A DNA stretch of 64,000 bases from a bacterium (GTDB lineage Bacteria; Bacteroidota; Bacteroidia; Bacteroidales; UBA3663): NCBI GenBank assembly GCA_963631395.1, contig CAVGQN010000001.1, positions 1,368 through 65,367 on the forward strand, written 5' to 3'. The notes under the pieces were generated by a model that was not told where the DNA came from, made no database searches, and saw only the letters and a list, made by a program, of their open reading frames with translations. The translations under genes and the position numbers were made by a program. Of this stretch, positions 2,309 to 43,187 are shown piece by piece; positions within the stretch are counted from its first letter, which is position 1, and every line of letters begins with the position of its first letter.

Positions 2309-2310
2309 AT

Positions 2311-5835: not shown

Positions 5836-5855
5836 CGGCATCAAACTTGAGAAAC

Positions 5856-8165: not shown

Positions 8166-8251
8166 GGGAAAATCGTTCTAATTTGGGGTAAATATTGTCT
8201 TAGTGGAAATTTTTCAGAAGATTGTTAGTTGAAGATGTCAGGCGAAATGCC

Positions 8252-8259
8252 TATCTTTG
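8252..8259 (+). promoter_or_regulatory. -7 box TATCTTTG for the FAS1/SusCD operon
   Basis: Exact TAnnTTTG match 126 nt upstream of the ATG at 8385. The leader can form the stem gctttttcagc (8264-8274) / gctgaaagaagc (8311-8322). Confidence 0.45.
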
Positions 8260-8384: not shown

Positions 8385-10868
8385 ATGAAAAAGATGCTTA
8401 GTAAAAGCAACCTGTTTTGCTGTGTGCTGGCTATGGCTTCCTTCGTGGGACTCAGTTCGTCTTGTCAGGACGAGATGAAGGACTACTACAAGGAACCTAG
8501 TTCGATTAAAGGCAGTGTCTATGAGATTCTGAAGGAATCGGGCGACTACACCGTATTCCTACAGGGAGTCGAGACCTGTGGATGGACTTCACTTCTTCAG
8601 GGCCGTGCCATCATGACCGTCATGGCTCCTAACGATGCTTCGATGAACGCTTATCTGCAGGCTAACTACGGGACGACCGACATCACGCAACTTTCCGTTG
8701 CGGAGTTGAAGAAGCTCATCGGTTTCCACCTGTTGTACTATTCGTTCAACAAGGAGAAGATGGTCAACTTCCGTCCTGAAGAGGGCGATGGTGCGACAGA
8801 GGAACAGAAGCAAGTCAACGCCGGTCTGTACTACAAGTTCAGAACGCGCAGCCAGGATGCTCCCGAGACCGTGGAGGTCGACCACATGCTTGACGACATG
8901 GGCAACGTTGTCGATACATTCGGCATTACGGCCGACGTGTACCACATGGAGCGTTTCGTCCCCGTGTTCTCCAAGGAGATGTTCAACACCTATGTGATTG
9001 ACGGCAAGAAGAACTACGAGTATTTCTATCCCGAAACGGAGTACAAGGCCGAGGATGCCGACAACCTGGGCTTCCAGGTTTCCAATGCCACCGTGACCAA
9101 CACCGACGAGGTGATTGCCAAAAACGGATATATATATTATGTAGACCGCGTGGTGCGTCCGCTGGAGACTATCCAGAAGGAGCTCTCCTCAAGGTCGGGC
9201 TTCAGTCAGTTCCTCAAACTGTATGAGCAGTACGGTTACTATGAGGTCAACCAGAACCTGACCGACTTGTATGGCGGCGGCTCGACTACCTACTATACGA
9301 GAAACTACAAGAGCAGTTACAGGTTGCCGAACATTTGGCTGGAGTGGCCTACGAGCAGCTATACTTCGTTCTCCGTATTGTCTTCTGCCAATTACAGTTA
9401 CTCGATATTCGCTCCAACGGATGAGGCTTTCAACGAGTTCTACAAGGAATACTGGGGCGATGAGGGTACCGGCTATCCGAGCGAGGTCTGCTACGACAGC
9501 ATCTCGAACGATGCTATCGGATACCTGTTGTCCAACTCCGTCTACACGGGATTGGCATTCCCCGAGGAGATCGAGAAAGGCGACATCGAGAACGGCTACA
9601 CCGGTACGGTCATCAAGTTCGATGTCTTCGACGAGACAGCAGTGCCAGCCGAGAACCGTGTGATATGTGCCAACGGTATGCTCTATGGCCAGAATATCCT
9701 GACTCCTCCGGCAGTGTTCGGCTCCGTGTCAGGTCCGGCTTATAAATATAAGAAGTACAGTGTCTTCCTGCAGATGCTCAACAAGAGCGACATGCTCGAG
9801 GAACTCTACAGCGACCAGGTTAGCTATATCCTGCTCTATCCCAGCAACAACCAGTTTGCCAGCGAGGAAATTTGGTACGACGCTTCGACCGGTAAGGTCA
9901 TGAACTACAACGACACCAAGAAGGAAGTCGAGGTGGGCGCAGCTGTGCAGAAGCAGTATGCCAAGGCCCACATGATCAACTTGTACGGCGAGTCGAAGGA
10001 GCTGGAGAGTCCTGCTTCGGGCGTCAACGTCTATCGTACTTATGCCGACGATCCTGTCTACATCTACGTCAAGGACGGCAAGATTACCAATAGCTATTTG
10101 TTCAACAATCTCATCGACTATGCCGGCAACCCGCTGACCGACAAGGCTTCCATTTGGGCTGACTTCAAGGAGATTACCTTCCGCGACGGCAGCTGGAGCA
10201 ACGGTCACTGCTACGAGTACGACACCACCAACGACTCGTTGCTGCTGCTCGGCAACCTCAGCAATGCGCTCTATGCCAAGTTCATGCCGATGATCTATAC
10301 GCACCGCAACGACCAGGGCACCTTGTTCGAGGGCTTCATCCAGATGCTCGTCATGGCCGACATGATGGACACGGAGTCGCAGAGCATGGCCTATATGAGC
10401 GATGAGGACACCTATCTGATGTTGGTTCCTACCACCGATGCCATCAAGAAGGCTATCCTGGCCGGCGAGTTCCCCCACGTTACCACGACAGCCACCAGTG
10501 CCGACGACGAGCAGTTCTGGGCGCTCACTTCAGTCAAGGAGGGCGATACCGAACTGGCTGACCTGCAGCACTATCTGATGCAGTACTTCCTGCCTGTCAG
10601 CACCTCTCCGGCCAACCAGTATCCTTACCTGGGCTGGGGTCAGGACGTATCTGACACAGGCATCCCGAGCATCATCGACGAGAGTGTCGTACCTGCCGCA
10701 TGTGTGTACATCGACATCACTGACACGGGCTCGGCTCTCGTGGCCAAACCTGTTGCCGGCACGAAGGAAGTGCCGTTCTATTCAGGCTATGACTACTTGC
10801 CGTTTACCTTCAGCGACGGCTGCGTACAGTTCCTTGACGGTATTTTCGAGGACGTATGGCCCAAGTGA
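8385..10868 (+). CDS. Multi-FAS1 (fasciclin) domain surface lipoprotein
   Basis: 827 aa. The lipoprotein signal ends ...GLSSSC. There are repeated FAS1 hallmarks: IMTVMAPNDASMNAYL...LIGFHLLYY...KNGYIYYVDRVVRPL; again SIFAPTDEAFNEFY; and again LMLVPTTDAIKKAI. Confidence 0.75.
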   Translation: MKKMLSKSNLFCCVLAMASFVGLSSSCQDEMKDYYKEPSSIKGSVYEILKESGDYTVFLQGVETCGWTSLLQGRAIMTVMAPNDASMNAYLQANYGTTDITQLSVAELKKLIGFHLLYYSFNKEKMVNFRPEEGDGATEEQKQVNAGLYYKFRTRSQDAPETVEVDHMLDDMGNVVDTFGITADVYHMERFVPVFSKEMFNTYVIDGKKNYEYFYPETEYKAEDADNLGFQVSNATVTNTDEVIAKNGYIYYVDRVVRPLETIQKELSSRSGFSQFLKLYEQYGYYEVNQNLTDLYGGGSTTYYTRNYKSSYRLPNIWLEWPTSSYTSFSVLSSANYSYSIFAPTDEAFNEFYKEYWGDEGTGYPSEVCYDSISNDAIGYLLSNSVYTGLAFPEEIEKGDIENGYTGTVIKFDVFDETAVPAENRVICANGMLYGQNILTPPAVFGSVSGPAYKYKKYSVFLQMLNKSDMLEELYSDQVSYILLYPSNNQFASEEIWYDASTGKVMNYNDTKKEVEVGAAVQKQYAKAHMINLYGESKELESPASGVNVYRTYADDPVYIYVKDGKITNSYLFNNLIDYAGNPLTDKASIWADFKEITFRDGSWSNGHCYEYDTTNDSLLLLGNLSNALYAKFMPMIYTHRNDQGTLFEGFIQMLVMADMMDTESQSMAYMSDEDTYLMLVPTTDAIKKAILAGEFPHVTTTATSADDEQFWALTSVKEGDTELADLQHYLMQYFLPVSTSPANQYPYLGWGQDVSDTGIPSIIDESVVPAACVYIDITDTGSALVAKPVAGTKEVPFYSGYDYLPFTFSDGCVQFLDGIFEDVWPK

Positions 10869-10905
10869 TGGTTATAAGTAAAAGTTGAAAGTTAAAAAAA
10901 TCTAT

Positions 10906-13900
10906 ATGAAGAATATACTGAACAAACTTGGACTTGTGCTTGTGATGTCGCTCGTATGCGCTTCAGCATGGGGCCAGCAGATAATCAGTGGCGTCGTCTA
11001 CGAACGGTTCGGGGCCTCCAAGGAGCCTTGTATGGGCGTCAACGTGGCCGTTGTCAATGACCAGAACCGTACCCTCACCGGTACTACCACCGATATGGAC
11101 GGCAACTATTCCATCAAGATGCCTGTGGGGCAGAACCTGACCCTGGTCTTCTCCTTCATCGGTATGGCCCCTCAGCGTGTGGCCTACACCGGACAGAAGC
11201 GTTTGGACATCACGATGGAAGAGGACAGCAAGACGCTGCAGGAAGTCGTCGTGGCTACGGGCCGTACGGTCAAATCCGAACTCGGCCTGACGGCCAAACA
11301 GTTTACGGGTGCATCGCAGAGCATCAAGATGGAAGAAGTCTTCGAGGCTTTGCCGGTCAACTCTGTCGAAGAGGTCCTGCAGGGCCAGCTCGGCGGTGTC
11401 GACATTCTGACGGGCGGTGACCCGGGTGCCAAGGGTTCTATCCGTATCCGCGGTACCGCTACCCTCAACTCCAGCGCAGACCCGCTCATCGTCATCAATG
11501 GCGTGCCTTACAATACGGACATCGCCGACGACTTCGACTTCTCTACGGCCAACACCGAGGACTTCGCCGACATGCTTTCGCTCAACCCGAACGATATCGA
11601 GGGCATCGAGGTACTCAAGGATGCCGCTTCTACCGCTATGTACGGTACCAAGGGTGCCAACGGTGTGCTCTTGATTACGACCAAGAAAGGTGTGCGCGGC
11701 AAGCCGAAGTTCACCTTCTCGCACAAGTCTTCGCTCAAGGTCGAGCCGGATGCCATTCCGATGCTCAACGGCGACGAATATACGGCCTACATGCAGGATG
11801 CCATCTGGAACACGGCCAATGCCAAGGGCCTGTCTTCCTCACATAGTCTGATTCAGATGCTGTTCCCCTCGGAGCCTACCGACAACGGTTACGCCATCGG
11901 CTACGAACCTAGCTGGAGCTACTTCGACGAGTACAATGTCAATACCAACTGGCTCGACGAGGTGCGCAAGAACGCCTATACCACCGACAACAACTTCTCT
12001 ATGTCGGGCGGTGGCGACAAGGCTACCTACCGTTTCTCTTTGGGATGGACGTCTGAAGACGGTACCACCAAGGCAACCGACATGACGCGTCTGACGTCTT
12101 CACTCAACATCGGCTACAACTTCTCCGACCGCTTCAAGGTGTCGGCCGAGTTCACCTATTCCGACACTAAGAACACCTCTGCCTACTTTACGAGCGACCA
12201 GACCCGTACGGAGGCACAGCGCAAGATGCCTAACAAGTCGCCCTATTATATAGACGACGAGACCAAGGAGGCCACCGACATCTACTTCACCTACCAGGAT
12301 GCCAACGAGTTCCAGGGTGCTTTCACCGGCAGTGCCAACTTCCATCCCATCGCTGCTGTCAACGAGTCGTGGAAGAACACCAACACCAAGGAGGAGAAGA
12401 TGAACATCAGTCCGAGGTTTGTCATCATCCGCGACGAAAACAAGAACCCGATTCTCCAGTATCAGGGTTACGTCTCGATGAAGTTCAAGACGACCAAGGA
12501 CAACCGCTACCTTCCGCAGGAGGTGACCGGTGTGAACATCAACTCTACGAACTGCAATTTCGCCTACGACGCTTCGACCAACAATTTCTCCCTGCAGACA
12601 GAGACCAAGTTGCTCTACAACCAGAGCTTCAAGGACAACTTGCACAACATCGTGGCTACCCTCTTGTGGCGTACCACACAGTCGAGCAGCTCGAGCTACA
12701 CCTCGCAGGTGTATGGCGTGGCCAACGGACAGATGGCCGATCCTACCACCGGCGGTACGCTGTACAACAGTTCAATCAACTCAGGTTCGTCTGAGGGCAG
12801 GACACTCTCCGGCATCGCCAACCTGAACTATACCTTCATGCGCTTCCTGACGGTCAATGCCACCTGGAACTACGAAGGCAACTCCGCTCTTGCCAAAACC
12901 AACCGTTGGGGTCTCTTCCAGTCTTATGGCGGCGCCCTGAACCTGCAGGACTTCGAGCCTCTGAAGGAGAAGACCGAGGATTGGCTCAGCCAGGCCAAGA
13001 TCCGTTACAGCTGGGGTCAGTCAGGCAAGTCGCCTTCGGGTACTTCGCCCTACGTCGGCACATACACGGCTCTTAGTTCCAAGTACGGCACCAAGACACC
13101 TATCGTGCCTAACTCCATGCAGCTCAACAAACTGAAATGGGAGACCTCTACCGAATGGGACTTGGGCGTCGATTTGGGCTTCTGGAACAACAAAGTGACC
13201 ATGACGTTCGACTACTACGACAAGACCACCGAGGACTTGTTGCAGAAAGGTGTGACCGTGTCTTCGACCTCGGCATTCTCCAGCTTGTCATACACCAACT
13301 CCGGTTCGCTGGAAAACAAAGGTTGGGAGTACCGTATCGACTACGAAATCTTCAAGAACAAGGACTGGCAGATTAAGGCCGACTTCAACATCAACCGCAA
13401 CCGCAACGAAATCATCGAATTGCCGAGCAACCTGGCCGAAGAGACCTATTCGCTCAAGAACGGTCAGTATGCACAGAAGCTCGTGACGGGTACCCCGACC
13501 GGTTCGTTCTTCGGCTACCGCTACAAGGGCGTATACCAGAATCTGGAAGATACCTACGCCCGCGATGCCGAGGGCAACATCATGCGTGACCTCGAGGGCA
13601 ATGCCATCGTCATGAAGAACAGTACCTACACCTGTTATCCCGGCGATGCCAAGTACGAGGACATCAACCACGACGGCAAGATTGACAAGAACGATATCGT
13701 GTATATCGGCAACTGCAACCCTGTGGTCCATGGCGGTGCCGGCGTGTCAGTGCGCTACAAGGACTGGACGCTCACCACACGTTTCCACTACCGTCTCGGT
13801 CAGAAGGTCATCAACTCTGCCCGTATGAACAACGAGGCCATGTACAACAAGGACAACCAGTCGAAGGCCGTCCTGCGCCGCTGGCGTTCGGAGGGCGACG

Positions 13901-14214
13901 ACACCGACATCCCACGCGCCTTGTATGGCTACGGCTACAACTACTTGGGTTCGGACCGCTTCGTCGAGGACTGCTCGTACATCCGTCTGCAGACCATCTC
14001 GCTGACCTACCGTTTCCCGAAGAGCTTCGTCCAAAAGTTGCATGCAGCCAACATGAGTTGCTTCATCACAGGCTACGACCTGTTTACATGGACCAACTAC
14101 AAGGGCCAGGATCCGGAAGTTTCACTGCCTTCGAAGATTACAGACCTCTCGCAGGATAACTCCACCACGCCCCGCAGTCGGCGGTTCTCATTCGGTGTAA
14201 CGCTCGGCTTTTAA
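10906..14214 (+). CDS. SusC/RagA-family TonB-dependent outer-membrane transporter (pair 1)
   Basis: The track ORF starts at a TTG (10885). I use the ATG at 10906 (MKNILNKLGLVLVMS...). The protein has a CarboxypepD_reg-like N-terminus (ISGVVYERFG...GNYSI), the SusC hallmark DPLIVINGVPY, and a C-terminal ...FGVTLGF. There is no STN signalling domain. Confidence 0.9.
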   Translation: MKNILNKLGLVLVMSLVCASAWGQQIISGVVYERFGASKEPCMGVNVAVVNDQNRTLTGTTTDMDGNYSIKMPVGQNLTLVFSFIGMAPQRVAYTGQKRLDITMEEDSKTLQEVVVATGRTVKSELGLTAKQFTGASQSIKMEEVFEALPVNSVEEVLQGQLGGVDILTGGDPGAKGSIRIRGTATLNSSADPLIVINGVPYNTDIADDFDFSTANTEDFADMLSLNPNDIEGIEVLKDAASTAMYGTKGANGVLLITTKKGVRGKPKFTFSHKSSLKVEPDAIPMLNGDEYTAYMQDAIWNTANAKGLSSSHSLIQMLFPSEPTDNGYAIGYEPSWSYFDEYNVNTNWLDEVRKNAYTTDNNFSMSGGGDKATYRFSLGWTSEDGTTKATDMTRLTSSLNIGYNFSDRFKVSAEFTYSDTKNTSAYFTSDQTRTEAQRKMPNKSPYYIDDETKEATDIYFTYQDANEFQGAFTGSANFHPIAAVNESWKNTNTKEEKMNISPRFVIIRDENKNPILQYQGYVSMKFKTTKDNRYLPQEVTGVNINSTNCNFAYDASTNNFSLQTETKLLYNQSFKDNLHNIVATLLWRTTQSSSSSYTSQVYGVANGQMADPTTGGTLYNSSINSGSSEGRTLSGIANLNYTFMRFLTVNATWNYEGNSALAKTNRWGLFQSYGGALNLQDFEPLKEKTEDWLSQAKIRYSWGQSGKSPSGTSPYVGTYTALSSKYGTKTPIVPNSMQLNKLKWETSTEWDLGVDLGFWNNKVTMTFDYYDKTTEDLLQKGVTVSSTSAFSSLSYTNSGSLENKGWEYRIDYEIFKNKDWQIKADFNINRNRNEIIELPSNLAEETYSLKNGQYAQKLVTGTPTGSFFGYRYKGVYQNLEDTYARDAEGNIMRDLEGNAIVMKNSTYTCYPGDAKYEDINHDGKIDKNDIVYIGNCNPVVHGGAGVSVRYKDWTLTTRFHYRLGQKVINSARMNNEAMYNKDNQSKAVLRRWRSEGDDTDIPRALYGYGYNYLGSDRFVEDCSYIRLQTISLTYRFPKSFVQKLHAANMSCFITGYDLFTWTNYKGQDPEVSLPSKITDLSQDNSTTPRSRRFSFGVTLGF

Positions 14215-14264
14215 TTGAGATTTGTATGACGAATGAAGAATTAAAGGTTAGAAAGGATATAACA

Positions 14265-15893
14265 ATGAAGAAAATCAAAGATATATGTGCTTCCGTACTG
14301 CTCGGTTCCTTCCTTTTGGCAGGCAACAGCTGTAGCGATTATCTCGACATTCTCCCTGAGAACTCGCAGGTGTCAGATACGTATTGGAAGAGCGCCGATG
14401 ACGTGGAGAACTTCCTGATGGGCGGTTACTACTATCTGCGCAGCAATGTGGAGAGTTACATCATCCCCTGGGGCGAACTGCGTGCCAGTGTCGTCTACCA
14501 GTGGAGCGGTACGCCGAAACTGCAGTCCTGGCAGATGACTTCGACTGACAGCTACTGCAAGTGGGACTCCTGGTACAAGATTATCAATATCGCCAATACC
14601 GTCCTGGAGCGTGCTGACGAAGCCTGTCAGAACAGCGACACTTACACCGAGGCCGCCCGTAACAGCCATTATACCGAGGCTGCCTTCCTGCGTGCCATCT
14701 CTTACTTCTATCTGGTGCGCAACTTCCGCGACGTGCCGATGCCGCTCAAGGCATATAGCAACGACAAGGTGGTTATCAACATCCCGAAAGTTTCCGAGGA
14801 TACGGTGATCAACCAGATCAAGGCCGACCTGAAGGCCGCCATAGCCACGGGTGCTGCCAAAGAGAGTTTCGAGACGACCTGGGAGACCAAGGGCCGTGCT
14901 ACCAAGTGGGCCCTGTATGCCTTGATGGCCGACGTCTGCCTGTGGCATGAGGACTACGAGGAGTGCATTACCTATTGCGATGCCCTGCTCAACGCCAGCG
15001 GCAGCAAGGTGCCGGCATTCATGGCCACTCCGACCCGTTCGAACTACATGTCGATGTACAACCCCGGAAACTCCAACGAGAGCATCTTCGAAATCCAGTA
15101 CAACTACGAGGAGGACCAGACCAACAATCTGCCGTTGCTTTTCGACGATCAGAATGCTGCTGGCATCTATGCCATCTCGGCTGAGGCCTGCACGGACTTT
15201 GTGAACGAATACACGGCCATCGTCGGCGACAATGAGGGAGCCATCACCAGTGGCAAGGAGTCGGCCCGTACCTATCACTCAGCCTTCCATCCCGGTTCCA
15301 ACCTTTCAATGGCTCCGGGTCTGCAGAGGGGCTATGTATGGAAGTATATCGGTTCGACGACCGAGGACAAGAAGCGTACGTCGACCTACTACGACCCCAA
15401 CTTCATCATCTACCGTATGGCCGACATCATCCTGATGCGTGCCGAGGCCTACCTCCGTCTGGACGGTGACAATCCGACCACCGAACACAAGCTTGAGGCT
15501 ATCAGGATGATCAACAAGATACGCGAGCGTGCCGGTTATACCGACGAGAACAATATCGCTGGAGCCGAGCTCAGCAGCAACAATCTGGAGGAGGCCTATT
15601 TCGTGGTCGAACAATACACTCAGGAGCAACTGCTTGAGAAGGTTCTTGACGAGCGCAAGCTTGAGTTTGTCGGTGAAGGCAAGATCTGGTATGACATGCT
15701 CCGTATGGGCCGTGCCAACAACAACAAGTACAAGACACAGTTCATCGTCGAGCAGGTCATCCGCTACAACACGTCGGCATCGGAGTCCTGGTTGCGTTCG
15801 GTGCTCAATTCGGACAATGCCCTCTTCCTGCCTATCTATAATTCGGAAATAGAGAGCAACGACAAGCTTGTGCAGAATCCATACTACAAATAA
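14265..15893 (+). CDS. SusD/RagB-family lipoprotein (pair 1)
   Basis: An upstream ATG at 14226 is also possible. I prefer 14265 (MKKIKDICASVLLGSFLLAGNSCSDYLD), which gives a lipobox. The sequence is a TPR-like SusD fold (YWKSADDVENFLMGGYYYLR..., RAEAYLRL...) and sits immediately after SusC. Confidence 0.85.
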   Translation: MKKIKDICASVLLGSFLLAGNSCSDYLDILPENSQVSDTYWKSADDVENFLMGGYYYLRSNVESYIIPWGELRASVVYQWSGTPKLQSWQMTSTDSYCKWDSWYKIINIANTVLERADEACQNSDTYTEAARNSHYTEAAFLRAISYFYLVRNFRDVPMPLKAYSNDKVVINIPKVSEDTVINQIKADLKAAIATGAAKESFETTWETKGRATKWALYALMADVCLWHEDYEECITYCDALLNASGSKVPAFMATPTRSNYMSMYNPGNSNESIFEIQYNYEEDQTNNLPLLFDDQNAAGIYAISAEACTDFVNEYTAIVGDNEGAITSGKESARTYHSAFHPGSNLSMAPGLQRGYVWKYIGSTTEDKKRTSTYYDPNFIIYRMADIILMRAEAYLRLDGDNPTTEHKLEAIRMINKIRERAGYTDENNIAGAELSSNNLEEAYFVVEQYTQEQLLEKVLDERKLEFVGEGKIWYDMLRMGRANNNKYKTQFIVEQVIRYNTSASESWLRSVLNSDNALFLPIYNSEIESNDKLVQNPYYK

Positions 15894-15914
15894 AACCATT
15901 GACAAATCAACGTT

Positions 15915-17780
15915 ATGAAAGCATATAAATATATAATGTTCGCGTGTGTCGGTTCATTGGCCCTGTCGGCTTGCGATGATCCGTTCGAGGGGGATACCTT
16001 TGTCACGCCTACCGACGTCGAGAACGAGATGACTTGCACCACTCTGATGGAGAAGCGCTCGGACGATTTCTCAATGTGGATTGACTTTCTCAAGTACGCT
16101 GACTACTACAACGGACTCAAGGATGCTTCGGCTACGGCTACCGTTTTCGCACCGACCAACAAGGCCATCCAGGAGTTCCTCGAGTGGCGCGGCGTGTCGT
16201 CTATCCAGGAACTGGACAAGACTTATGCACGTGAGGTCGTACAGAACCATATCATCAGCGGCATCAAGATAAGCAACGAGACCTTCATCAATGCGGCTGC
16301 CGACAACCAGGCACTGACCACACAGAGTCTCTTCTTGTCGTATCTGAAACCGACTTTCGGACATATCATCATGGATGTCGACGATGCAGAACGCACCGGC
16401 GATACGCTCAACATCGAGTCTGTCTACATCAACAACCAGGCCATCGTACAGCCCAGGGATTCCGGAGGTATCAACAGTATTGAGGCATCCAACGCCATCA
16501 TCTACTATATGGACGACGTCATCCGTCCGCTGTCGGAGCCTATGGTCTCCAAACTGGAGTCGGAGGGCCAGTACACTATCTTCGCTGCAGCCTGCCGCGA
16601 ATCGGGCTATGACAAGGTAGCCGAGCAGTTGCGCGACACCGTCTATATCCGCGGTGGCGGCTATTCGGTCACGACCTATCAGTTCACGTGTTTTGCTCCT
16701 AGCGACGATGCCATGAAGGCTGCCGGCATCAACAGCCTTGACGACCTCAAGAATATGGTCGGTACGGCCGACAGCGCTCTCTACAAGTATTGCGCCTACC
16801 ACTTCCTGAACTCCAAGCTCAGCAAGTCGGAGTTCCTGAAGTACGACACCGACGATCAGGTGCTCATCTACGACACCAACAACAAGGGCAATGTCATCAC
16901 GGCACAGCATCAGATGAACGCCGACTCCACCTTCGTCACTGACAGCAAGGGCGAGATGGTCACCCTTATCAACGAGAAGGCCAAAATCGTCCGTTCGGAC
17001 ATCGAGGCCCGTAACGGCATGATTCACAAGATTGACTATGTGATGCCCGTCTGGACTCCCAAGCCTGTGACCATCAAGTGGGACTTCTGCAACACGGACC
17101 AGATTATCCGCTTTGCCAATGCCTATGGCGCCAGCAAGAAACTCGGCGACCTCTACTCGACGGCCATGACCAACAAGGAGTATCAGATAGACCTGACGCA
17201 GACCTACCGCGACGGCCAGTTCGGTGAGATCGACTCTACGACCTTCACTTATCAGGCCAACAGCACCAAGGCCAGCTACGGCAACTACCGCGCCATTGGT
17301 TTCTTTAAGAACAAATACTACTCTTCGAAGCAGAAGACCATCAACCACTACCGTTCTTACCTGAACAACCTGCTCTTCGTCAACCTGGGCTATGCCGGTT
17401 GGGTACAGTTCAAGACCCCGACCATCATCAAGGGCAAGTACAAGGTCACACTGCACTATGCTTCCAACTCGACCATGAGCAAGTATCATGCTGCAGGTTC
17501 TTTGACCAAGTTCCAGATTGACCCCGAAGCCAACAAGTCGGAGTGGAGCAAGAATGCATACGTATTCAAGGGCCTGCCTGACAAAAAGGAAGTGGAGTTC
17601 ACGAATTACTGGTCATCCGAGGTCTGCAAACTTGACCTGTGGGTGGGCGCCAATGCCATCGAGTTCACGGAGTCCGGTTCACACAAGCTGAAGGTAACGA
17701 TGCTCGACATCAATGCGAAGACGGGCAACACCTACCACCAGATGTGGGATTACATCCTGTTCGAACCGATAACTGAATAA
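15915..17780 (+). CDS. FAS1-domain lipoprotein with a C-terminal CBM-like beta-sandwich region
   Basis: 621 aa with lipobox LALSAC. FAS1 motifs are ATVFAPTNKAIQEFL...VVQNHIISG...NAIIYYMDDVIRPL and CFAPSDDAMKAAG...NGMIHKIDYVMP. The C-terminal GKYKVTLHYASN...MWDYILFEP resembles a CBM6/35-type pattern. Confidence 0.75.
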   Translation: MKAYKYIMFACVGSLALSACDDPFEGDTFVTPTDVENEMTCTTLMEKRSDDFSMWIDFLKYADYYNGLKDASATATVFAPTNKAIQEFLEWRGVSSIQELDKTYAREVVQNHIISGIKISNETFINAAADNQALTTQSLFLSYLKPTFGHIIMDVDDAERTGDTLNIESVYINNQAIVQPRDSGGINSIEASNAIIYYMDDVIRPLSEPMVSKLESEGQYTIFAAACRESGYDKVAEQLRDTVYIRGGGYSVTTYQFTCFAPSDDAMKAAGINSLDDLKNMVGTADSALYKYCAYHFLNSKLSKSEFLKYDTDDQVLIYDTNNKGNVITAQHQMNADSTFVTDSKGEMVTLINEKAKIVRSDIEARNGMIHKIDYVMPVWTPKPVTIKWDFCNTDQIIRFANAYGASKKLGDLYSTAMTNKEYQIDLTQTYRDGQFGEIDSTTFTYQANSTKASYGNYRAIGFFKNKYYSSKQKTINHYRSYLNNLLFVNLGYAGWVQFKTPTIIKGKYKVTLHYASNSTMSKYHAAGSLTKFQIDPEANKSEWSKNAYVFKGLPDKKEVEFTNYWSSEVCKLDLWVGANAIEFTESGSHKLKVTMLDINAKTGNTYHQMWDYILFEPITE

Positions 17781-17806
17781 TATTAATGAGATAAAAGAAG
17801 AATTGT

Positions 17807-19702
17807 ATGAAAAAGACAATTTGGTATTATATACTTGGAGTCTCTGCCTTGACTTTCGCTGCTTGCAACGACGAGTGGAACGACCACTTCGACGAAGCGG
17901 GCTCGGAGGCTACTTCCGGTGTGGAAGTCTATAAGGGCAATGCAGCATCGTTCGTGCAGGGCGAGTCGGGCCTCAAGCAGTTTGCCTCGCTCTATGAGCA
18001 GGCCGGTCTGATGGACGTCATCGGCCGGGATGACAGCTACTGCACTTTGATTGTGTGCGAAGATGCCAATATCAATCCCGCCACAGACTCGGAGGCCATG
18101 TCCAACGAGAAGTTCGTGACCAATACGGTCTCTGACCTTTCCATTGCGCCGGTCTCGCTCGTCGACGGTTTCGGCATCTATACACGCTGCGGCAAGAACA
18201 TTTGGGTCACTCTCGATGCTGACGGCAACAAGCTGCTCAACGGCAAGAAGATTACCCGTATGGTCCAGACCGACAACGGCTACGTCTATTTCGTGGACGG
18301 CATCATCTCCGCTGCGCCTTCGCTCTACGAGTACATCCAGAGCCTGGGCGACGACTACTCCATGTTCAAGTCGTTCGTGGCTGAGTTCGAGGAGCAGTAT
18401 TTCGATGCCGATGCTTCTACGCCCTGTGGTGTCGACGTGATGGGCAACACCATCTACAGCGATTCGGTTATCTCGACCAAGAACACCCTGATGGACCGTT
18501 ACAACGAGAACGGCCTGCCGACGTGGGATATGCGCAGCGAGTCGTACCTGTCTACGCTCTTCGTCCCTAACAACAAGCTGCTGGAGCATGCCTACACGGC
18601 TGCCCTTGACAGTGTCAAGCTGTTCCTGCGCCGTTCGGTTACTTCAGCCGACTCCCTCAAGTTCCGCAAGTGGATTGTAGAGAGTTGCTTCGTGGACCGC
18701 AAGCTCAGTCCCGAGGAGGTAGCTCCAACGGCCAGCCAGTTCGAGTGCGTCGGCGGATACGTGCAGGAGATTGACGAGACCTCCGATACGGAGACTTACG
18801 AGTCTATCGATGCCGCCCAGTGGAATCCCGCCATCCAGCATGTCGACTACGAGAACCCCGTGAACCTGTCCAATGGTTATGCCTATTTGCTGACCGACTA
18901 CTACAAGATTCCGAACCATATCGTCATCTGGCGTGTCAAGGCACGTTTCTATCAGATTTGGTCAGCCCTCAATGCCACACAGCAGGGTTGGGACGCTACC
19001 AACCTGGTGGCTACCGGTGGCGGCTACTTCCGTTGGAACCACTGGATCAAGCCTTTGGTTGTCAACGATGCCCAGGGCTCGTTCGAGTTGTCGGCCACAC
19101 TGCCTACCATCTACTATCACGTGCTGACGGCCGAACCTGACCAGGAGTCACAGACCGACAGTCTGACGGTCAGTGTGGACTACGACGGTCTGCTCTACAA
19201 TGCCGACGAGAAGCAGTATGGCCTCCAGGAAGTCTATCTGCCGGCAGGTGAGTACAACCTCCGCATGGGCTTCAAGCACTCGCTCGACTACTCTCTGTCC
19301 ATCTATTTCTGCGGTGCTGACGAGGAGTTCAGTGAGGCCAATTGCCTGGTCAAGGATATGGCCATGAAGGCTACCGGTTCGAACTTCCACTTCGACCGTG
19401 CCGGTGCTTCCGAGGGCCTCGAGCTCTACGGTGACGATGCGTCCGGCTATCCGGAGTATTTCGACTGGCGCTGGTGGTACGATCAGGATCCTACCCTCTA
19501 CCAGAAGGCTTCTGCCTACGACACCGACGGCTATCAGATAGCAAGGGTTGTGCTTCACAAACCGGGCAACTTCAAGATCAAGATTGAATCGAGCGACAAT
19601 GCCCTCTTCTATAAGAACGGTGCCATGAACCGCTCCAAGTCCGACATTCAGCAGCTGATGATGTATCACTGGTGTCTCCGTCCAACCACGAATAACTATT
19701 GA
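17807..19702 (+). CDS. FAS1-like lipoprotein with a C-terminal beta-sandwich-like region
   Basis: 631 aa with lipobox LTFAAC. The FAS1 signature is weaker: FASLYEQAGLMDVIG...TLIVCEDANI...TDNGYVYFVDGIISAAPS. The C-terminal GEYNLRMGFKHS...MMYHWCLRP parallels the preceding protein. Confidence 0.6.
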   Translation: MKKTIWYYILGVSALTFAACNDEWNDHFDEAGSEATSGVEVYKGNAASFVQGESGLKQFASLYEQAGLMDVIGRDDSYCTLIVCEDANINPATDSEAMSNEKFVTNTVSDLSIAPVSLVDGFGIYTRCGKNIWVTLDADGNKLLNGKKITRMVQTDNGYVYFVDGIISAAPSLYEYIQSLGDDYSMFKSFVAEFEEQYFDADASTPCGVDVMGNTIYSDSVISTKNTLMDRYNENGLPTWDMRSESYLSTLFVPNNKLLEHAYTAALDSVKLFLRRSVTSADSLKFRKWIVESCFVDRKLSPEEVAPTASQFECVGGYVQEIDETSDTETYESIDAAQWNPAIQHVDYENPVNLSNGYAYLLTDYYKIPNHIVIWRVKARFYQIWSALNATQQGWDATNLVATGGGYFRWNHWIKPLVVNDAQGSFELSATLPTIYYHVLTAEPDQESQTDSLTVSVDYDGLLYNADEKQYGLQEVYLPAGEYNLRMGFKHSLDYSLSIYFCGADEEFSEANCLVKDMAMKATGSNFHFDRAGASEGLELYGDDASGYPEYFDWRWWYDQDPTLYQKASAYDTDGYQIARVVLHKPGNFKIKIESSDNALFYKNGAMNRSKSDIQQLMMYHWCLRPTTNNY

Positions 19703-19704
19703 TT

Positions 19705-22700
19705 ATGAAAAACAAGATAATTCTTTCACTTACAGTTGCAGCCTTTTCTGCTGCGGCCTTTGCGCAGGAGCAGACATTCAAGGGTACTGTGGTCGGCACT
19801 GACGGCAAACCGCTGGAGGGTGTCATCCTCTCCGTCCCGGGTGCCAACGGTTCGACTTTGACCGACGAGAACGGTGAGTTCAACCTCACCACCTCGGCTA
19901 CGGATGGAACGCTGAAGGTTGTCTTTCAGGACTACTATACCCACCTCTATCCGCTCAAGTCGAATGTCATCCCCAAGGTCATCGTGATGGTACCGATGTC
20001 GGAAAGCCGTTTCAGCGGCCAGACCTATATGCCCGACGGCAACACCATCTCGCGCGACCAGTCGAGTGCCTTGCTCGGCACCCACTATAAGAAGGACTTC
20101 TCCGACTCTCCTTCCGCCGACCTCTCATGGCAGGGTCTTGACCCCGCGCTGAACATCGTCAAGAAGAGCGGCATGCCTGGCGAAGGCGGCTATTTCAACA
20201 TCCGCGGCATCAATTCACTCAATGCCGAGAATACGCCTCTCATCGTCATCAACGGTGTGCCCTATCTGGCCAACATGTCTGTCAGCGACGTCATCAACGC
20301 CTACAGCCGCGATGCCCTGTTCGGCTACAATGCCCATGACATCCGCTCCATTACGGTGCTGAAGGGTGCCGAGGCCGCCATGTACGGTTCGCTGGGTTCC
20401 AATGGCGTGATTGCCATCCAGACGGAACAGGCTGTCAGCGACAACCTCGACACGAAGGTTTCCTTCCAGGGTTCGTATGGCATGGCCGTAGCCAAGGATG
20501 CGCTGCCGGCCCTCAATCCCTCTCAGTACAAAAACTATCTGATGGGCATTGGCCAGACACGCTACAGCTCGCTTTCAGCCCTTCAGACCGACTATCCGTT
20601 CCTGTCCAACGATGCCAACTACTATTCGTACTTGTTCAACAACAACACGGACTGGAACGACGAGATCTACCGCAACGGATTTGTCACCGACAACATCCTG
20701 CGTGTAGAGGGTGGTGACGAAATCGCCAAGTACAACATTTCGTTCGGTTATACGCACAACAACGGCGTGCTTCAGGGTACCAATTCGGGCCGTTACTCCA
20801 CTTCGTTGAATACCAACATCATGGTGAGCCGTCAGTTTGACGTCTTCGCAGGTGTCAACCTGGCCTACATCAACAGCGAATTGAACAACACCGGCATGAG
20901 CGAGGAGACCAATCCTATCCTGGCTGCCTACCACATGATGCCTAACCTGAACGTGCACCAGCAGCTCGACGACGGTTCGGTCATGAACAACCTCTACCTG
21001 AAGTACAATGGCTGGAACACGAACAGCAATCCTACGTATGATTACGACAACGTGTCCAACCCCTCTGCCATCGTCAACACCGTCGACGGCACGGACAAGA
21101 TTTACGATGCCAATATCAACCTCGGACTCAACTACCGTCCGAACCAGAATTGGACCATCACCGGTCAGGTCAACCTCTACTACGACTACACCGAGGAGTA
21201 TATCTTCACGCCGGGTGTGACTGACCAGGCCATTATCCCGCAGCTCTACGGCACGGGCGAGAACTTCGTCTCGATGGGCGTTATCCGCCAGTCGTCGTAC
21301 TACTACAACCTCAATGCCGCTTACCAGAACACCTGGAACCAGAAGCACAGCCTCTCGGCCTATGCAGGTGTGCGTCTTCTGACCAAGGACTTCGAGTACG
21401 ATGCATCGAGCGGTTACAATACGGCCAACGACTACTACAAGACCCTTTCGGTGACTACCGACGAATGGAATATTTTCGGCAACAATGACGAGTGGAAGTG
21501 GCTTTCGTTCTACCTGCACGGCGACTACACCTACAACAACCTCCTCAAGGCCAGCGTGGGCGTGACGGCCGACGGAACTTCCGCTTCCGGTGTCAATGCC
21601 AACCGCTTCGGATGGTTCCCGTCAGCCAGCTTGACTTGGTTCACGGCCAACCACGGAACCCTGCCCGATGCCTTCGACCTGCTGAATGTCACCGCCGAGG
21701 TTTCTATGTCAGGCAACAGCCGCTTCTCGAGCAACTATGCCAAGAACTACTACGTCAGCAACAACCTCTTCAATCTCGGTACTATCGTGCGCAATGGCGT
21801 GCCCAACACCAACTTGGAGTGGGAGAAGAAGTTGCAGTATGACTTGGGTGTAGACCTGTCGATGTTCGGCAACAAGTTCAATGCCCGCGTCAATGCCTTC
21901 TATGCCGACCATTTCGACCTTCTGCTCGACGCATCCCTGTCGGCAGCCTATGGTTCCAATGGCGTGTACTATGCCAACGATGCCGCCATTGCCGACCGTG
22001 GCGTAGAGGTCAGCCTCCGTTACAACCCCATCCACAACAAGGACTGGGAGTGGATCATCAATGCCGGCGGAAGCTATATCAGCACCGAAGTGACCGACTT
22101 GGGCGGACAGTCCGAGCTCATTACGAGCTATACTTCCTACAACAACGACGACGCTCAGACCCGTCTGAAGAAGGGCCGCTCGCCGTATGAGTTCTATGGT
22201 TTCGAGACCAAGGGCGTCTATGCCACTACAGCCGAGGCCCTGACTCCCGATGCCAACGGCAATGTGCTGAAGAACAGCTACGGCAACAACTACCAGGGCG
22301 GTGACGTCATCTTCGTCGACCAGAACGGTGACGGTGTCATCAACGATCAGGACCGTGTTAGCCTGGGTACGGCTGCTCCCGACTTCTTCGGTTCGTTCGG
22401 CACCTCTCTCCGCTGGAAGAACTTCACGTTGAGCGCCGACTTCTCGTTCTCTGTCGGCAACAAGGCCTACAATGCCGTACGTCGCCAGACCGAGTCGATG
22501 GATTCGTTCTTCAACCAGTCGACGGCTGTCCTCAACCGTTGGCAGAAGGAGGGCGACAAGACCAGCATGCCGCGTGCTACCTATGGTGACCCCTCGGGCA
22601 ACAACTTCTTCAGCGACCGCTGGATCGAGGATGCCGACTATCTCAAGTTGCGCAACCTCCAGCTTTCCTACGCGTTCAGCAAGGAGCAGCTGAAGATAGC

Positions 22701-22866
22701 CAGCGGCAACATCTGGATTTCGGCCGAGAATCTCGTCACCTTTACCAAATATTTGGGTTCAGACCCGGAGTTCTCCTACAGCTATACCGAGGCCCTTCGC
22801 GGATTCGACTATGCCAAGGTGGCCAACCCAATGACCTTCAAGGTAGGTGTTAATCTCAATTTCTAA
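19705..22866 (+). CDS. SusC/RagA-family TonB-dependent outer-membrane transporter (pair 2)
   Basis: The ATG at 19705 (MKNKIILSLTVAAFSAAAFAQ) lies 2 nt after the previous stop. The protein has a CarboxypepD_reg-like N-terminus, the hallmark TPLIVINGVPY, and a C-terminal ...KVGVNLNF. Confidence 0.9.
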   Translation: MKNKIILSLTVAAFSAAAFAQEQTFKGTVVGTDGKPLEGVILSVPGANGSTLTDENGEFNLTTSATDGTLKVVFQDYYTHLYPLKSNVIPKVIVMVPMSESRFSGQTYMPDGNTISRDQSSALLGTHYKKDFSDSPSADLSWQGLDPALNIVKKSGMPGEGGYFNIRGINSLNAENTPLIVINGVPYLANMSVSDVINAYSRDALFGYNAHDIRSITVLKGAEAAMYGSLGSNGVIAIQTEQAVSDNLDTKVSFQGSYGMAVAKDALPALNPSQYKNYLMGIGQTRYSSLSALQTDYPFLSNDANYYSYLFNNNTDWNDEIYRNGFVTDNILRVEGGDEIAKYNISFGYTHNNGVLQGTNSGRYSTSLNTNIMVSRQFDVFAGVNLAYINSELNNTGMSEETNPILAAYHMMPNLNVHQQLDDGSVMNNLYLKYNGWNTNSNPTYDYDNVSNPSAIVNTVDGTDKIYDANINLGLNYRPNQNWTITGQVNLYYDYTEEYIFTPGVTDQAIIPQLYGTGENFVSMGVIRQSSYYYNLNAAYQNTWNQKHSLSAYAGVRLLTKDFEYDASSGYNTANDYYKTLSVTTDEWNIFGNNDEWKWLSFYLHGDYTYNNLLKASVGVTADGTSASGVNANRFGWFPSASLTWFTANHGTLPDAFDLLNVTAEVSMSGNSRFSSNYAKNYYVSNNLFNLGTIVRNGVPNTNLEWEKKLQYDLGVDLSMFGNKFNARVNAFYADHFDLLLDASLSAAYGSNGVYYANDAAIADRGVEVSLRYNPIHNKDWEWIINAGGSYISTEVTDLGGQSELITSYTSYNNDDAQTRLKKGRSPYEFYGFETKGVYATTAEALTPDANGNVLKNSYGNNYQGGDVIFVDQNGDGVINDQDRVSLGTAAPDFFGSFGTSLRWKNFTLSADFSFSVGNKAYNAVRRQTESMDSFFNQSTAVLNRWQKEGDKTSMPRATYGDPSGNNFFSDRWIEDADYLKLRNLQLSYAFSKEQLKIASGNIWISAENLVTFTKYLGSDPEFSYSYTEALRGFDYAKVANPMTFKVGVNLNF

Positions 22867-22878
22867 AATTACAGAAAT

Positions 22879-24630
22879 ATGAAAAATATAATCTCGTTAC
22901 TTATAGGCTCTGTCTTTGTATCGGGTTCCCTGTTCCTGACGACTTCGTGCGATGATTTCTTCGAAACCAATCCTGCGAACATCATGAACGATGAGGACTA
23001 TATGGGTAAGGAGTCTGACATCTACCGCGGCTATCTGGGCATACAGACCCGTATGCAGGAAGTCGGCGACCAGGCCATGATCCTGACCGACACGCGGTGC
23101 CAGTACCTGGAGACGACAGGCAATGCCCCCGTCGCCCTGCAGAACATCAACAACTACGAGCCGACCGACGGCAACACCTATGCCGACCCGACCGGATACT
23201 ATGCCGTAGTGGTGGCCTGCAACGACTTCCTGACCAAAATTGATGATTTCTATACCGAAGTGAACGGTGTCGTTTCCGACTCGGCCAAAGTGCGCATCCC
23301 GCGTCTGGTGTCCGGTGCACTCCGCTACAAGGTGTGGGCTTATCTGATGCTGGGCCGTATCTACGGCGAGGCTTATTGGTATGAAACAAGCAACACCGAG
23401 CTCGTCTCGCTGAGCGACACGAAGACCTTCGAGCACCTCGACATGAAGGGTATCTGCGACAAGTGTATCGACCTGCTCGACAACGGCATTACGCTGTGCG
23501 GCCAGCAGATTCCTGCCGACCTGACCATGGACTGGACCCGTTGGGTCGAGCCGTTGGTGGGCGACGCCAACTACGACTACTGGAAGTACATGAGCCCGGA
23601 TTGGCTCTGTCTGCGCGCCGAACTGACCACATGGCGTACCAACTACGAGGATGCCGCTGCCGCCAAGGCCGACTGGCTGTGGGTGCGCGACAATGTCCTG
23701 CAGTTCTTGGCAGATCAGATGAACGTCAAGTGGTATAACTATGCGACCTGTATGACCCTGACGCTCTACTATGCGCAGATGTTCTTTGGTGAGGGCGCTG
23801 TGGAGGATAATATCTACACAGGCTCCGGCGACGGACACCTGCAGACGCTGAGCGCCATCTACTACGACTACGACAACTTCCAGCGCAACCGCATCGTGCA
23901 GTATCTCTGCCCCGAGTATCCCGGTGACGGTTACTACCTGCGTCCTTCCGAATATGCCATGTCGCAGTACAACAGCTCGGATCTGCGCGGCGAGACACAG
24001 AAGCTGATGGTGACCCAGTACAACGAAGGTCTGGCTTTGACCAAGTTCTACTACACCCGCTACAACTCACGCGGCTATCTGCGTACCAAGATTTTCGAGA
24101 TCGAGCCGCAGATATACCTCTACCGTGGCCATGAGTTGCACTACTGGCTGGCCGAAGCCGAGAACCATCTCGGTCACTGGCAGGTGTGCGATGCGCTGCT
24201 CAACGATGGTTTGCTCAACTACTTCCCTGGCGGTGTCAACACCATTCCCAAGGACTCCATCGACGGCGACCGCGTGTGGGACGAACGTTACACATCCTTC
24301 TTTATCGCTTATGGCGACTTGGGCCTGACCGGTACTGTGAAGGGTACGCTGCACGACCTGACGCAGCTACCAGACGGCGGTGACACGCTGGCCTTTGCGT
24401 TCGACGAGGACCGCATCAAGGAGTATGACCTTGCTTTGGCCGACGAGTTCCTCAAGGAGTTTACGGGTGAAGGCAAGTCGTACAGCTACCTCTGCAAGAT
24501 GGCCGAGCGTTATGGCAAGGACTACACGGTCATCTACGACCGCATCAAGGGCAAGTACGAAAATACCGGCAACCAGCAGAAGGTGCAGTCATCGCTGCAG
24601 CAGAAATACTTTATTGACTGGAATCTCTAA
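22879..24630 (+). CDS. SusD/RagB-family lipoprotein (pair 2)
   Basis: 583 aa with lipobox LTTSCDD. It lies 12 nt after SusC and has SusD-like helical repeats (YRGYLGIQTRMQEVGD..., YWLAEAENHLG...). Confidence 0.8.
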   Translation: MKNIISLLIGSVFVSGSLFLTTSCDDFFETNPANIMNDEDYMGKESDIYRGYLGIQTRMQEVGDQAMILTDTRCQYLETTGNAPVALQNINNYEPTDGNTYADPTGYYAVVVACNDFLTKIDDFYTEVNGVVSDSAKVRIPRLVSGALRYKVWAYLMLGRIYGEAYWYETSNTELVSLSDTKTFEHLDMKGICDKCIDLLDNGITLCGQQIPADLTMDWTRWVEPLVGDANYDYWKYMSPDWLCLRAELTTWRTNYEDAAAAKADWLWVRDNVLQFLADQMNVKWYNYATCMTLTLYYAQMFFGEGAVEDNIYTGSGDGHLQTLSAIYYDYDNFQRNRIVQYLCPEYPGDGYYLRPSEYAMSQYNSSDLRGETQKLMVTQYNEGLALTKFYYTRYNSRGYLRTKIFEIEPQIYLYRGHELHYWLAEAENHLGHWQVCDALLNDGLLNYFPGGVNTIPKDSIDGDRVWDERYTSFFIAYGDLGLTGTVKGTLHDLTQLPDGGDTLAFAFDEDRIKEYDLALADEFLKEFTGEGKSYSYLCKMAERYGKDYTVIYDRIKGKYENTGNQQKVQSSLQQKYFIDWNL

Positions 24631-24635
24631 ATAGG

Positions 24636-24677
24636 CAAGTCGCGCAGTCACCCCTTCGAGGGGGATTGCGCGACTTG
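24636..24677 (+). terminator. Long GC-rich hairpin after the second SusD gene
   Basis: caagtcgcgcagtcacccc-ttcga-ggggattgcgcgacttg forms a stem of about 18 bp with one bulge and one G-U pair, 5 nt after the stop. No T-run follows. Confidence 0.5.
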
Positions 24678-24801
24678 ACACATTTCGGCTATCTGGCCAA
24701 TATGACTCCGGAAAGGTAAAAAAAGTCGCAATTAGGGGTAAAAAAAGTTTAAGGGAAGAAAGAAAAGACATTACTTCTTTGCTTGTTTCCTATAAAAACG
24801 C

Positions 24802-24809
24802 TAATTTTG
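24802..24809 (+). promoter_or_regulatory. -7 box TAATTTTG for the beta-helix gene
   Basis: Exact TAnnTTTG match 190 nt upstream of the ATG at 24999. Confidence 0.4.
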
Positions 24810-43184: not shown

Positions 43185-43187
43185 TCC

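Follow-up and report, generated by a model that had tools for sequence, protein, structure and literature searches.

What does a locus with two SusC/SusD pairs take up when it carries neither a recognized carbohydrate-active enzyme (CAZyme) nor a regulator of its own? Canonical polysaccharide utilization loci (PULs), which follow the Sus paradigm, contain a linked enzyme of a CAZy family and a sensor or regulator, be it a hybrid two-component system (HTCS), SusR, or an extracytoplasmic function (ECF) sigma/anti-sigma pair acting with an STN-bearing SusC. The question is raised by positions 8385-24630 of a 64,000-nucleotide stretch of a Bacteroidales genome, hereafter the window, in which seven open reading frames (ORFs), all in one direction and with intergenic gaps of -4 to 26 nt, encode two STN-less SusC transporters, one ordinary and one very divergent SusD, and three lipoproteins with fasciclin (FAS1) domains. 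We refer to these genes as g1 to g7, to the ORF at 24999-27305 as g8, and to all eight (8385-27305) as the cassette. Our analysis suggests that the cassette is a self-contained outer-membrane PUL core that would capture and import pieces of a plant cell-wall polysaccharide of the pectic type, rich in uronic acids, a reading that we hold with fair but not high confidence.

Two SusC/SusD pairs and three FAS1 lipoproteins

The genes of the cassette are the following.

8385-10868, plus strand: g1, predicted surface lipoprotein of 827 aa with the lipobox LSSSC followed by QDE; Pfam Fasciclin at E = 2.4e-14
10885-14214, plus strand: g2, SusC/RagA TonB-dependent transporter 1; TIGR04056 at E = 1.7e-219, TIGR04057 signature, Pfam
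14226-15893, plus strand: g3, SusD-family lipoprotein 1; SusD_RagB at 4e-29, SusD-like_3 at 1.9e-19
15915-17780, plus strand: g4, lipoprotein with two FAS1 domains (residues 35-204 and 205-382) and DUF5108 (385-621), by Pfam and hhalign dissection
17807-19702, plus strand: g5, lipoprotein with a divergent N-terminal FAS1 domain (about 30-172), a possible second FAS1-like region and a C-terminal domain (about 381-631)
19699-22866, plus strand: g6, SusC/RagA TonB-dependent transporter 2; TIGR04056 at E = 7.5e-160, TIGR04057 signature
22879-24630, plus strand: g7, highly divergent SusD-like lipoprotein 2, by hhalign against the g3 family
24999-27305, plus strand: g8, secreted protein of 768 aa and eighth gene of the cassette, by synteny, AlphaFold2 models, Foldseek and family profiles

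Both transporters have a CarboxypepD_reg N-terminal extension and a Plug domain ahead of the barrel, Pfam finds an STN domain in neither, and they are 29% identical to each other (BLASTP 3e-80). Of their partners, g3 is readily recognized, whereas the window copy of g7 has no Pfam, NCBIfam or PDB sequence match at normal thresholds. Because BLASTP gave nothing significant for g3 against g7, or for g4 against g5, we compared whole families by hhalign, using alignments of the g1-g8 families built from 86 related loci. The g7 family aligns with the g3 SusD family over 458 columns (probability 96.5%, E = 8.9e-10); given this alignment, a sub-threshold match to SusD-like_3 (E = 0.038), and the N-terminal "SCDDF" lipobox and C-terminal "EFxGEGK" motif that g7 has in common with g3, g7 is, on these sequence comparisons, a very divergent SusD. 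Adjacent susC-like and susD-like genes, the minimal definition of a PUL, are thus present as g2/g3, while in the second pair g7 is SusD-like only via hhalign.

In all five lipoproteins (g1, g3, g4, g5, and g7), the lipobox cysteine is followed by acidic residues, the surface-export signal of Bacteroidetes, and exposure on the cell surface is accordingly predicted for them. FAS1 proteins occupy all three slots for surface lipoproteins other than SusD, before and between the two SusCD pairs. The Fasciclin profile (PF02469; Pfam gathering cut-off of 22 bits) scores 54.1 bits in g1 and 90.3 bits in g4, where it covers two stretches (E = 1.4e-25). In g1 we distinguish at least two FAS1 domains, at about 41-257 and 261-450, followed by FAS1-like modules with weaker support at 451-640 and 641-827; these four match the FAS1 region of g4 with hhalign probabilities of 97%, 79-86%, 32-37%, and 60%, in this order; the fragment 451-827 reaches Fasciclin at E = 0.013, and a sequence search of the PDB matches g1 to FAS1 structures of TGFBIp. 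The C-terminus of g4 is DUF5108 (PF17133; E = 8.8e-25, 88-92 bits against a cut-off of 27.4), and all 120 g4 homologues among the matches listed, each of them an orthologue, combine Fasciclin with DUF5108. As a side observation, one related locus (L003:7716-9995) encodes a 759-aa product uniting SusD-like_3, Fasciclin, and DUF5108, while its sibling contigs have separate g3 and g4 genes; the combined product could be a deletion, a fusion, or an assembly artefact.

The case of g5 is less direct. Its window copy yields no Pfam, NCBIfam or PDB sequence match at normal thresholds, and the N-terminal half attains 17.9 bits against Fasciclin, below the cut-off, while covering the whole length of the profile (E = 0.0037). 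At the family level, hhalign matches the N-terminal 275 residues to the FAS1 regions of g4 and g1 with probabilities of 96% and 97%, and about 30 g5 orthologues carry PF02469. The g5-type family is spread over Bacteroidota and, at 50% identity, forms about 900 clusters; the 30 remote matches of the g5 profile include Sunxiuqinia, Paludibacter, Odoribacter, and Sphingobacterium, with the name "fasciclin domain-containing protein" given to those from Odoribacter splanchnicus and Sphingobacterium olei. The last 250 or so residues of g5, although strongly conserved, match nothing by Pfam or hhalign, DUF5108 included, and no carbohydrate-binding module (CBM) family, CBM6 and CBM35 among them, was found in the C-termini of g4 and g5 at E <= 10. 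Taken together, the sequence comparisons indicate that FAS1 is clear in g1 and g4, whereas in g5 it lies below threshold in the window copy and is supported across the family.

An earlier note, made from the letters of the window, had described this region as a seven-gene tandem SusC/SusD locus with STN-free transporters, in which every accessory gene encodes a FAS1 lipoprotein. The tandem locus and the lack of STN are confirmed, and the Fasciclin profile recognizes g1 and g4; g5 as a FAS1 protein and g7 as a SusD are recovered indirectly, through orthologues, sub-threshold scores, and hhalign, whereas g3 is a direct SusD match. Of the three FAS1 copies it counted in g1, two are well supported, and the true number is uncertain given the two further weak modules. 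The CBM6/35-like C-termini that it had proposed gave way to DUF5108 in g4.

A conserved eighth gene and a clue to the ligand

When one genome per species was scanned with the g5 alignment, only close relatives of the cassette were returned, in 80 loci, all from uncultured metagenome-assembled genomes. The sources are the guts of goat, yak, deer, cattle, sheep, and buffalo, digesters, and genomes labeled Prevotella sp., Paludibacter, Coprobacter, and Porphyromonadaceae, and all cassette hosts are Bacteroidales of herbivore guts or anaerobic digesters. The order g1-g7 is kept in every locus with enough flanking sequence (about 60 loci, 33-98% identity). In 47 of the 59 informative loci, a g8 homologue detected by hidden Markov model search is the next gene after g7, mostly at a distance of 35-170 nt, and in two distant loci the homology reaches BLASTP values of 1e-50 and 4e-28. 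The g8 family comprises about 100 unnamed sequences, all of which lie inside the cassette. What flanks the cassette varies by genome (a xanthine permease; an FGGY kinase with a fucose-isomerase-like gene; a GH88-family gene with a Sde182-like gene; a dockerin/PI-PLC protein) or consists of housekeeping genes (HisRS, QueA, QueF, etc.), and since the flanks are of these two sorts, the cassette appears to move as a unit, as a self-contained eight-gene module. One complete cassette of the Bacteroidales type lies on a contig labeled "Lachnospiraceae bacterium" (L084, CAVAPI010000152.1); the label is probably a binning error.

Profile searches found no enzyme of a recognized CAZy family in g1-g7. 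Because g8 belongs to the conserved cassette, it is the obvious candidate for the missing enzyme, as judged from synteny and modeling. The protein consists of a signal peptide, a right-handed parallel beta-helix (about 25-390), an immunoglobulin (Ig)-like domain resembling the InlB B-repeat (about 400-475), a beta-sandwich resembling CBM4 and cleaved-adhesin domains (about 480-700), and a C-terminal domain (CTD) that is probably a sorting signal of the type IX secretion system (T9SS). The window copy matches nothing in Pfam or NCBIfam, hhalign of g8 against FAS1 and DUF5108 was negative, and a PDB sequence search with the g8 profile returned nothing useful. Across 48 family members, Pfam recognizes Flg_new_2 (19), DUF4957 (18), F5/8 type C (12), and Por_Secre_tail (5), and more rarely Dockerin_1 (4), Beta_helix (2), and DUF5123 (1), while NCBIfam assigns the T9SS type A domain (TIGR04183) to 13/48 and the type C signal to 4/48; the window C-terminus matches neither TIGR04183 nor PF18962 and is CTD-like by eye. 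The sorting or anchoring module of the family is thus variable, being a T9SS type A CTD, a T9SS type C signal, or a type I dockerin, with all variants found within the same Bacteroidales cassette (e.g., the homologue at L093:10001-12298).

The AlphaFold2 model of the whole protein has a pLDDT of 82.6. Since the Foldseek matches of this model were dominated by the C-terminal sandwich, which resembles CBM4 and the cleaved-adhesin domains of gingipains, the beta-helix was modeled again by itself (pLDDT 88.9, pTM 0.90). Its closest structural neighbors are PL6 alginate lyases (TMq 0.45-0.48, probability 0.97), followed by the AlgE6 epimerase, CE8 methylesterases, PL1, PL9 (5olq/5olr), GH28, and phage tailspikes, all of them beta-helix carbohydrate-active enzymes, and the models place g8 among the right-handed beta-helices of the pectate-lyase-like superfamily. 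Among homologues that are 24-40% identical, R149 and R153 are invariant, E103, H186, D215, and E242 are nearly so, and an Asn ladder is retained; both arginines and the four near-invariant residues are placed on the helix, a pattern compatible with a catalytic groove, though not proof of one. As an observation in its own right, g8 is 78% identical to its counterpart in a close relative (L007), while g1-g7 of the same genome are 94-98% identical; the divergence centers on helix residues 51-150 and 251-350 (40-68% per 50-aa block), the C-terminal half remaining at 82-100%, a distribution suggestive of recombination or of diversifying selection acting on an exposed face.

The clue to the ligand comes from relatives of the window locus. 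Seven genomes contain a second, paralogous cassette, which we call type B and whose g1-g7 are 35-48% identical (type-B loci: L073, L075, L076, L077, L079, L081, L085, L086, and L068). In eight of the type-B loci, g7 is directly followed by a gene for a 600-aa protein with Big_5 and Pectinesterase domains (CE8; PF01095 at E = 1e-37 to 1e-41), and in L068 a CE8 gene is followed by a g8-like gene and then by a second CE8 gene. Furthermore, in one cassette of the window's type (type A; L088), g1 is directly preceded by genes of the GH88/GH105 family, a Pfam family of unsaturated uronyl hydrolases, whose substrates are the products of lyases. Because of the CE8 proteins in the sister cassettes, the GH88/GH105 neighbors, and the herbivore-gut distribution, the comparative evidence points to a pectic substrate.

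A related arrangement is known from a cultured organism. Import by the rhamnogalacturonan I (RG-I) PUL of Bacteroides thetaiotaomicron is through two SusC/D complexes, BT4164/65 and BT4168/69 (PMC8002723), the latter confirmed as susC/susD (PMC13292587); the surface glycan-binding protein (SGBP) BT4167 lies between the pairs, and the surface PL9 lyase BT4170 comes next (PMC8002723; PMC13292587). The RefSeq products of BT4164-69 are given as SusC, a DUF5108 protein, hypothetical proteins, and a TonB-dependent receptor (PMC10434189, transcriptome table). Compared at the level of the literature only, the core BT4164-BT4170 would read SusC-SusD-DUF5108-X-SusC-SusD-beta-helix, which is the order of g2-g8, and by annotation its DUF5108 and hypothetical proteins parallel g4, g5, and the profile-invisible g7. 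There are, however, clear differences: the RG-I core is embedded in a PUL of roughly 40 genes with many glycoside hydrolases (GH), polysaccharide lyases (PL), and carbohydrate esterases (CE) plus an HTCS, whereas the cassette stands alone; BT4170 is a PL9 enzyme, whereas g8 is not (no sequence match, and a Foldseek E of about 0.6 between its helix and the PL9 rhamnogalacturonan lyase structures 5olq/5olr); and the cassette starts with an additional FAS1 lipoprotein, g1.

Control elements and neighborhood of the cassette

The elements of possible regulatory significance in and around the cassette are the following.

8163-8192, plus strand: two TTGGGG(T/A)AAA copies, some 67-89 nt ahead of the g1 -7 box, a candidate operator whose motif is also present at the g8 promoter
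8252-8259, plus strand: -7 promoter box TAtcTTTG of the Bacteroidetes type, read from the sequence, 126 nt before the g1 start
24635-24677, plus strand: GC-rich hairpin after g7, without a T-run; -39.9 kcal/mol, z = -7.46, 0/200 shuffles as stable
24733-24742, plus strand: exact TWGGGGTAAA copy, 60 nt upstream of the g8 -7 box
24802-24809, plus strand: -7 box TAatTTTG before g8, read from the sequence
36506-36982: ECF sigma factor (Sigma70_r2/r4), the sole one in the window, 9 kb beyond g8

Both boxes conform to the Bacteroidetes -7 consensus, TAnnTTTG. The 64-kb window holds only two exact matches to TWGGGGTAAA, located 60-61 nt upstream of the -7 boxes of g1 and g8; a further copy with 1 mismatch lies about 80 nt upstream of the -7 box of g1, and in two related loci (L007 and L008) the TTGGGG(T/A)AAA motif precedes g1 with the same spacing. 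Its overall count (6 against 3.6 expected) is not significant by itself, and it is the position that is suggestive. The placement of the motif hints at co-regulation of g1 and g8, and the TTGGGGTAAA boxes are a candidate binding site, proposed from the sequence, of an unlinked regulator. The hairpin was not scored by the intrinsic-terminator scan and is possibly an attenuator or an RNA-stability element rather than the end of the evolutionary unit. General scans were uninformative for this phylum: the sigma-70 scan gave 17 promoters where 13.4 were expected, and the number of terminators fell below that of chance.

No HTCS, SusR, or adjacent ECF pair was found within the 64-kb window, so that the locus, with STN-less transporters and no HTCS or SusR, departs from the regulatory pattern of canonical PULs; the same three regulator types are absent beside the type-A cassettes with visible flanks. 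The ECF sigma gene of the window is followed by a 199-aa ORF without a Pfam match, possibly an anti-sigma factor (36506-37596), and no STN-bearing transporter is linked to it. Just downstream of three type-B cassettes (L073, L076, and L085), an OmpR-type response regulator and a histidine kinase are encoded on the opposite strand, and a fourth (L075) has the kinase only.

The remaining neighbors are a pair of enzymes and a second group of transport genes.

2-2329, minus strand: GH2, upstream of the cassette, running off the start of the window and divergent to GH98+CBM35
2694-5132, plus strand: GH98+CBM35, upstream of the cassette
5649-8063: RNase R, between GH98+CBM35 and g1
50668 down to 39678, minus strand: cluster of a 588-aa protein, a TonB-dependent transporter (955 aa), DUF4876, DUF6850, a 208-aa ORF, an ABC ATPase, a 218-aa protein, and DUF4857

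The GH2 and GH98+CBM35 genes (2-5132) form an enzyme pair without a SusCD pair of its own. In none of the other loci examined does either stand beside the cassette, and because no other locus has them alongside, we rejected them as parts of it. The minus-strand cluster (39678-50668) is a non-Sus TonB-dependent receptor cluster and the second such receptor group in the window.

The earlier note had the seven genes begin at a promoter box at 8252 and end at a hairpin at 24636, with no HTCS, SusR, or ECF/anti-sigma pair, and with the GH2 and GH98-like genes kept apart by rnr. The box, the lack of regulators, and the upstream coordinates are borne out, and the hairpin is real; as an evolutionary boundary it fails, since g8 is conserved beyond it. 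The T9SS beta-helix protein that the note had set outside the unit does have its own -7 box, yet it is the conserved eighth gene, and the statement that enzymes are absent is probably wrong, with g8 as the candidate. The order FAS1-SusC-SusD, which the note had proposed to look for elsewhere, recurs in the relatives, and the ligand, which it took to be unexplored, is in view of the RG-I PUL and of the CE8 sister cassettes not entirely open. Its remark that the role of FAS1 in SusCD-mediated uptake is unexplored holds: in the full-text literature that can be searched, we found no paper discussing FAS1 domains in SusCD systems, and DUF5108 and DUF4957 are each mentioned there in one paper and in annotation strings only.

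Known systems, competing readings, and significance

The nearest mechanistic paradigm is offered by the SusCD utilisomes, or four-component complexes of SusCD with lipoproteins, for levan and dextran in B. thetaiotaomicron, which combine SusC2D2, glycan-binding lipoproteins, and a surface endo-enzyme in a pedal-bin mechanism (bioRxiv 10.1101/2022.08.15.503959; PMC13450635). The likeness lies in SusCD being encoded together with surface lipoproteins, although for the cassette it is the genes alone that are compared. The SGBPs of those utilisomes are Ig-like or beta-sandwich proteins, whereas the cassette lipoproteins are of the FAS1 type; the utilisome enzyme is a lipoprotein GH, whereas g8 is a beta-helix with a T9SS or dockerin tail; and the utilisomes have one SusCD pair, the cassette two.

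Fasciclin I, TGFBIp, and periostin have the Fasciclin domain and motifs in common with g1 and g4, but they mediate protein-based cell adhesion, whereas the FAS1 domains of g1 and g4 sit in Bacteroidota lipoproteins inside a SusCD locus and, unlike theirs, those of the cassette are fused to DUF5108 or other beta-rich domains. DUF4957 and DUF5123, annotated beside TonB-dependent receptors in pectin loci of B. thetaiotaomicron, e.g., BT1026 and BT4109-14 (PMC10434189), occur in beta-helix proteins as well; the g8 family matches them in 18/48 and 1/48 cases and the window g8 in neither, and g8 has extra Ig, beta-sandwich, and sorting domains.

With these systems as a guide, the following sequence of events may be envisaged. 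The surface FAS1 lipoproteins g1, g4, and g5 would act as SGBPs, with the C-terminal beta-rich domains (DUF5108 in g4, an unnamed one in g5) probably supplying or extending the binding sites. The secreted, probably T9SS-anchored g8 would then cut or de-esterify the polymer at the cell surface, and the pairs g2/g3 and g6/g7 would import two classes of oligosaccharides by a TonB-dependent pedal-bin mechanism, possibly within a utilisome-like complex. Periplasmic breakdown and sensing would be encoded elsewhere in the genome.

Alternatively, the cassette might serve scavenging without an enzyme of its own, in which case g8 would be a fourth surface glycan-binding protein, a non-catalytic beta-helix that might be likened to the DUF4957/DUF5123 proteins of Bacteroides pectin loci, and the release of the imported oligosaccharides would fall to other members of the community or to enzymes whose genes lie elsewhere. 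Such a role would agree with the lack of any match of g8 to a catalytic family and the generic nature of its structural matches, with its binding-type modules (the Ig-like repeat and the CBM4/cleaved-adhesin-like sandwich), with a helix as hypervariable between near-identical genomes as a binding or antigenic surface would be, and with flanks devoid of conserved degradative enzymes. It is harder to reconcile with the invariant arginine and the conserved acidic and histidine residues that the helix retains across its distant homologues, with the replacement or accompaniment of g8 by a true enzyme, CE8, in the sister cassettes, and with the lyase found at the analogous position of the B. thetaiotaomicron RG-I PUL (PMC8002723). 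On balance, we consider scavenging unlikely, although by no means negligibly so.

The cassette could also target a ligand other than pectin, such as complex glucuronoarabinoxylan or another hemicellulose, a plant arabinogalactan-protein or glycoprotein, or a microbial exopolysaccharide. Tandem SusCD pairs are typical of xylan loci as well, the GH98+CBM35 and GH2 genes 3-8 kb upstream point to hemicellulose, the beta-helix fold is shared by numerous depolymerases, among them tailspikes whose targets are capsules, and the flanks of one cassette (L087) hold an FGGY kinase together with a fucose-isomerase-like gene, as well as a CBM9 protein. Nevertheless, RNase R separates GH98 and GH2 from the cassette, neither adjoins it in the other loci examined, and CE8 pectinesterases are the only recognizable enzymes to recur inside cassettes of this family, to which the neighbors of the GH88/105 family may be added, so that a non-pectic ligand appears improbable. 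Finally, a system for peptides or other non-carbohydrate nutrients, comparable to RagAB and equipped with FAS1 adhesins, would suit FAS1 as a module best known from adhesion, with TGFBIp, periostin, and fasciclin I as its nearest solved structures, and the lack of a canonical CAZyme inside g1-g7, but we dismiss it as extremely improbable in view of the pectinesterase integrated in the sister cassette, the pectate-lyase-like fold and CBM-like sandwich of g8, the occurrence of the cassette in fiber-degrading Bacteroidales of herbivore guts, and the DUF5108 protein of a characterized pectin PUL (PMC10434189).

Several observations weigh against the import of pectic fragments with the aid of g8. 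The link to pectin is drawn from the gene neighborhood of relatives, not from the window locus, near which the sole CAZymes, GH2 and GH98+CBM35, are not pectinases, and the likeness to BT4164-BT4170 is an analogy read from published gene order and annotation. By sequence, g8 belongs to no known CAZyme family, and its helix alone gave no Foldseek match at E <= 1e-3, its matches being generic only; a non-catalytic role is thus possible. The g8 family is not homologous to the type-B CE8 proteins (hhalign probability <= 11%), and the exchange between them is therefore a substitution by position, of one beta-helix protein by another. In the window genome, 368 nt, a strong hairpin, and a -7 box of its own part g8 from g7. 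Lastly, glycan binding by a bacterial FAS1 protein was not found in the searchable literature.

With these points taken into account, we still favor a pectin-type PUL core, and we see in the cassette an unusual form of a known kind of locus, not a new kind of system. What is unusual about it is that its eight genes stand alone, that the accessory lipoproteins are all of the FAS1 type, that one SusD (g7) escapes all profiles, and that its beta-helix family has no assigned function. More tentatively, and with a good deal of doubt, it might be proposed that the g8 family is a new family of surface pectic enzymes (lyases or esterases), that g1, g4, and g5 represent an undescribed structural class of SGBPs, and that these proteins assemble with the two SusCD pairs into a regulator-less "plug-in" utilisome present in one or two paralogous copies in uncultured rumen Bacteroidales.

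If the favored reading is true, bacterial fasciclin domains would for the first time be set in a functional context, that of proteins that bind glycans in partnership with SusCD. The cassette nominates the FAS1/DUF5108 proteins as a class of SGBPs, it puts the g8 family forward as a candidate for a new family of CAZymes, and it suggests that the "hypothetical" genes in the RG-I PUL core of B. thetaiotaomicron, a genetically tractable organism, share protein families with the cassette. Uncultured Bacteroidales of herbivore guts and digesters, which are key fiber degraders and so far the only hosts found, would thus possess a compact, portable, eight-gene module of the pectin type.

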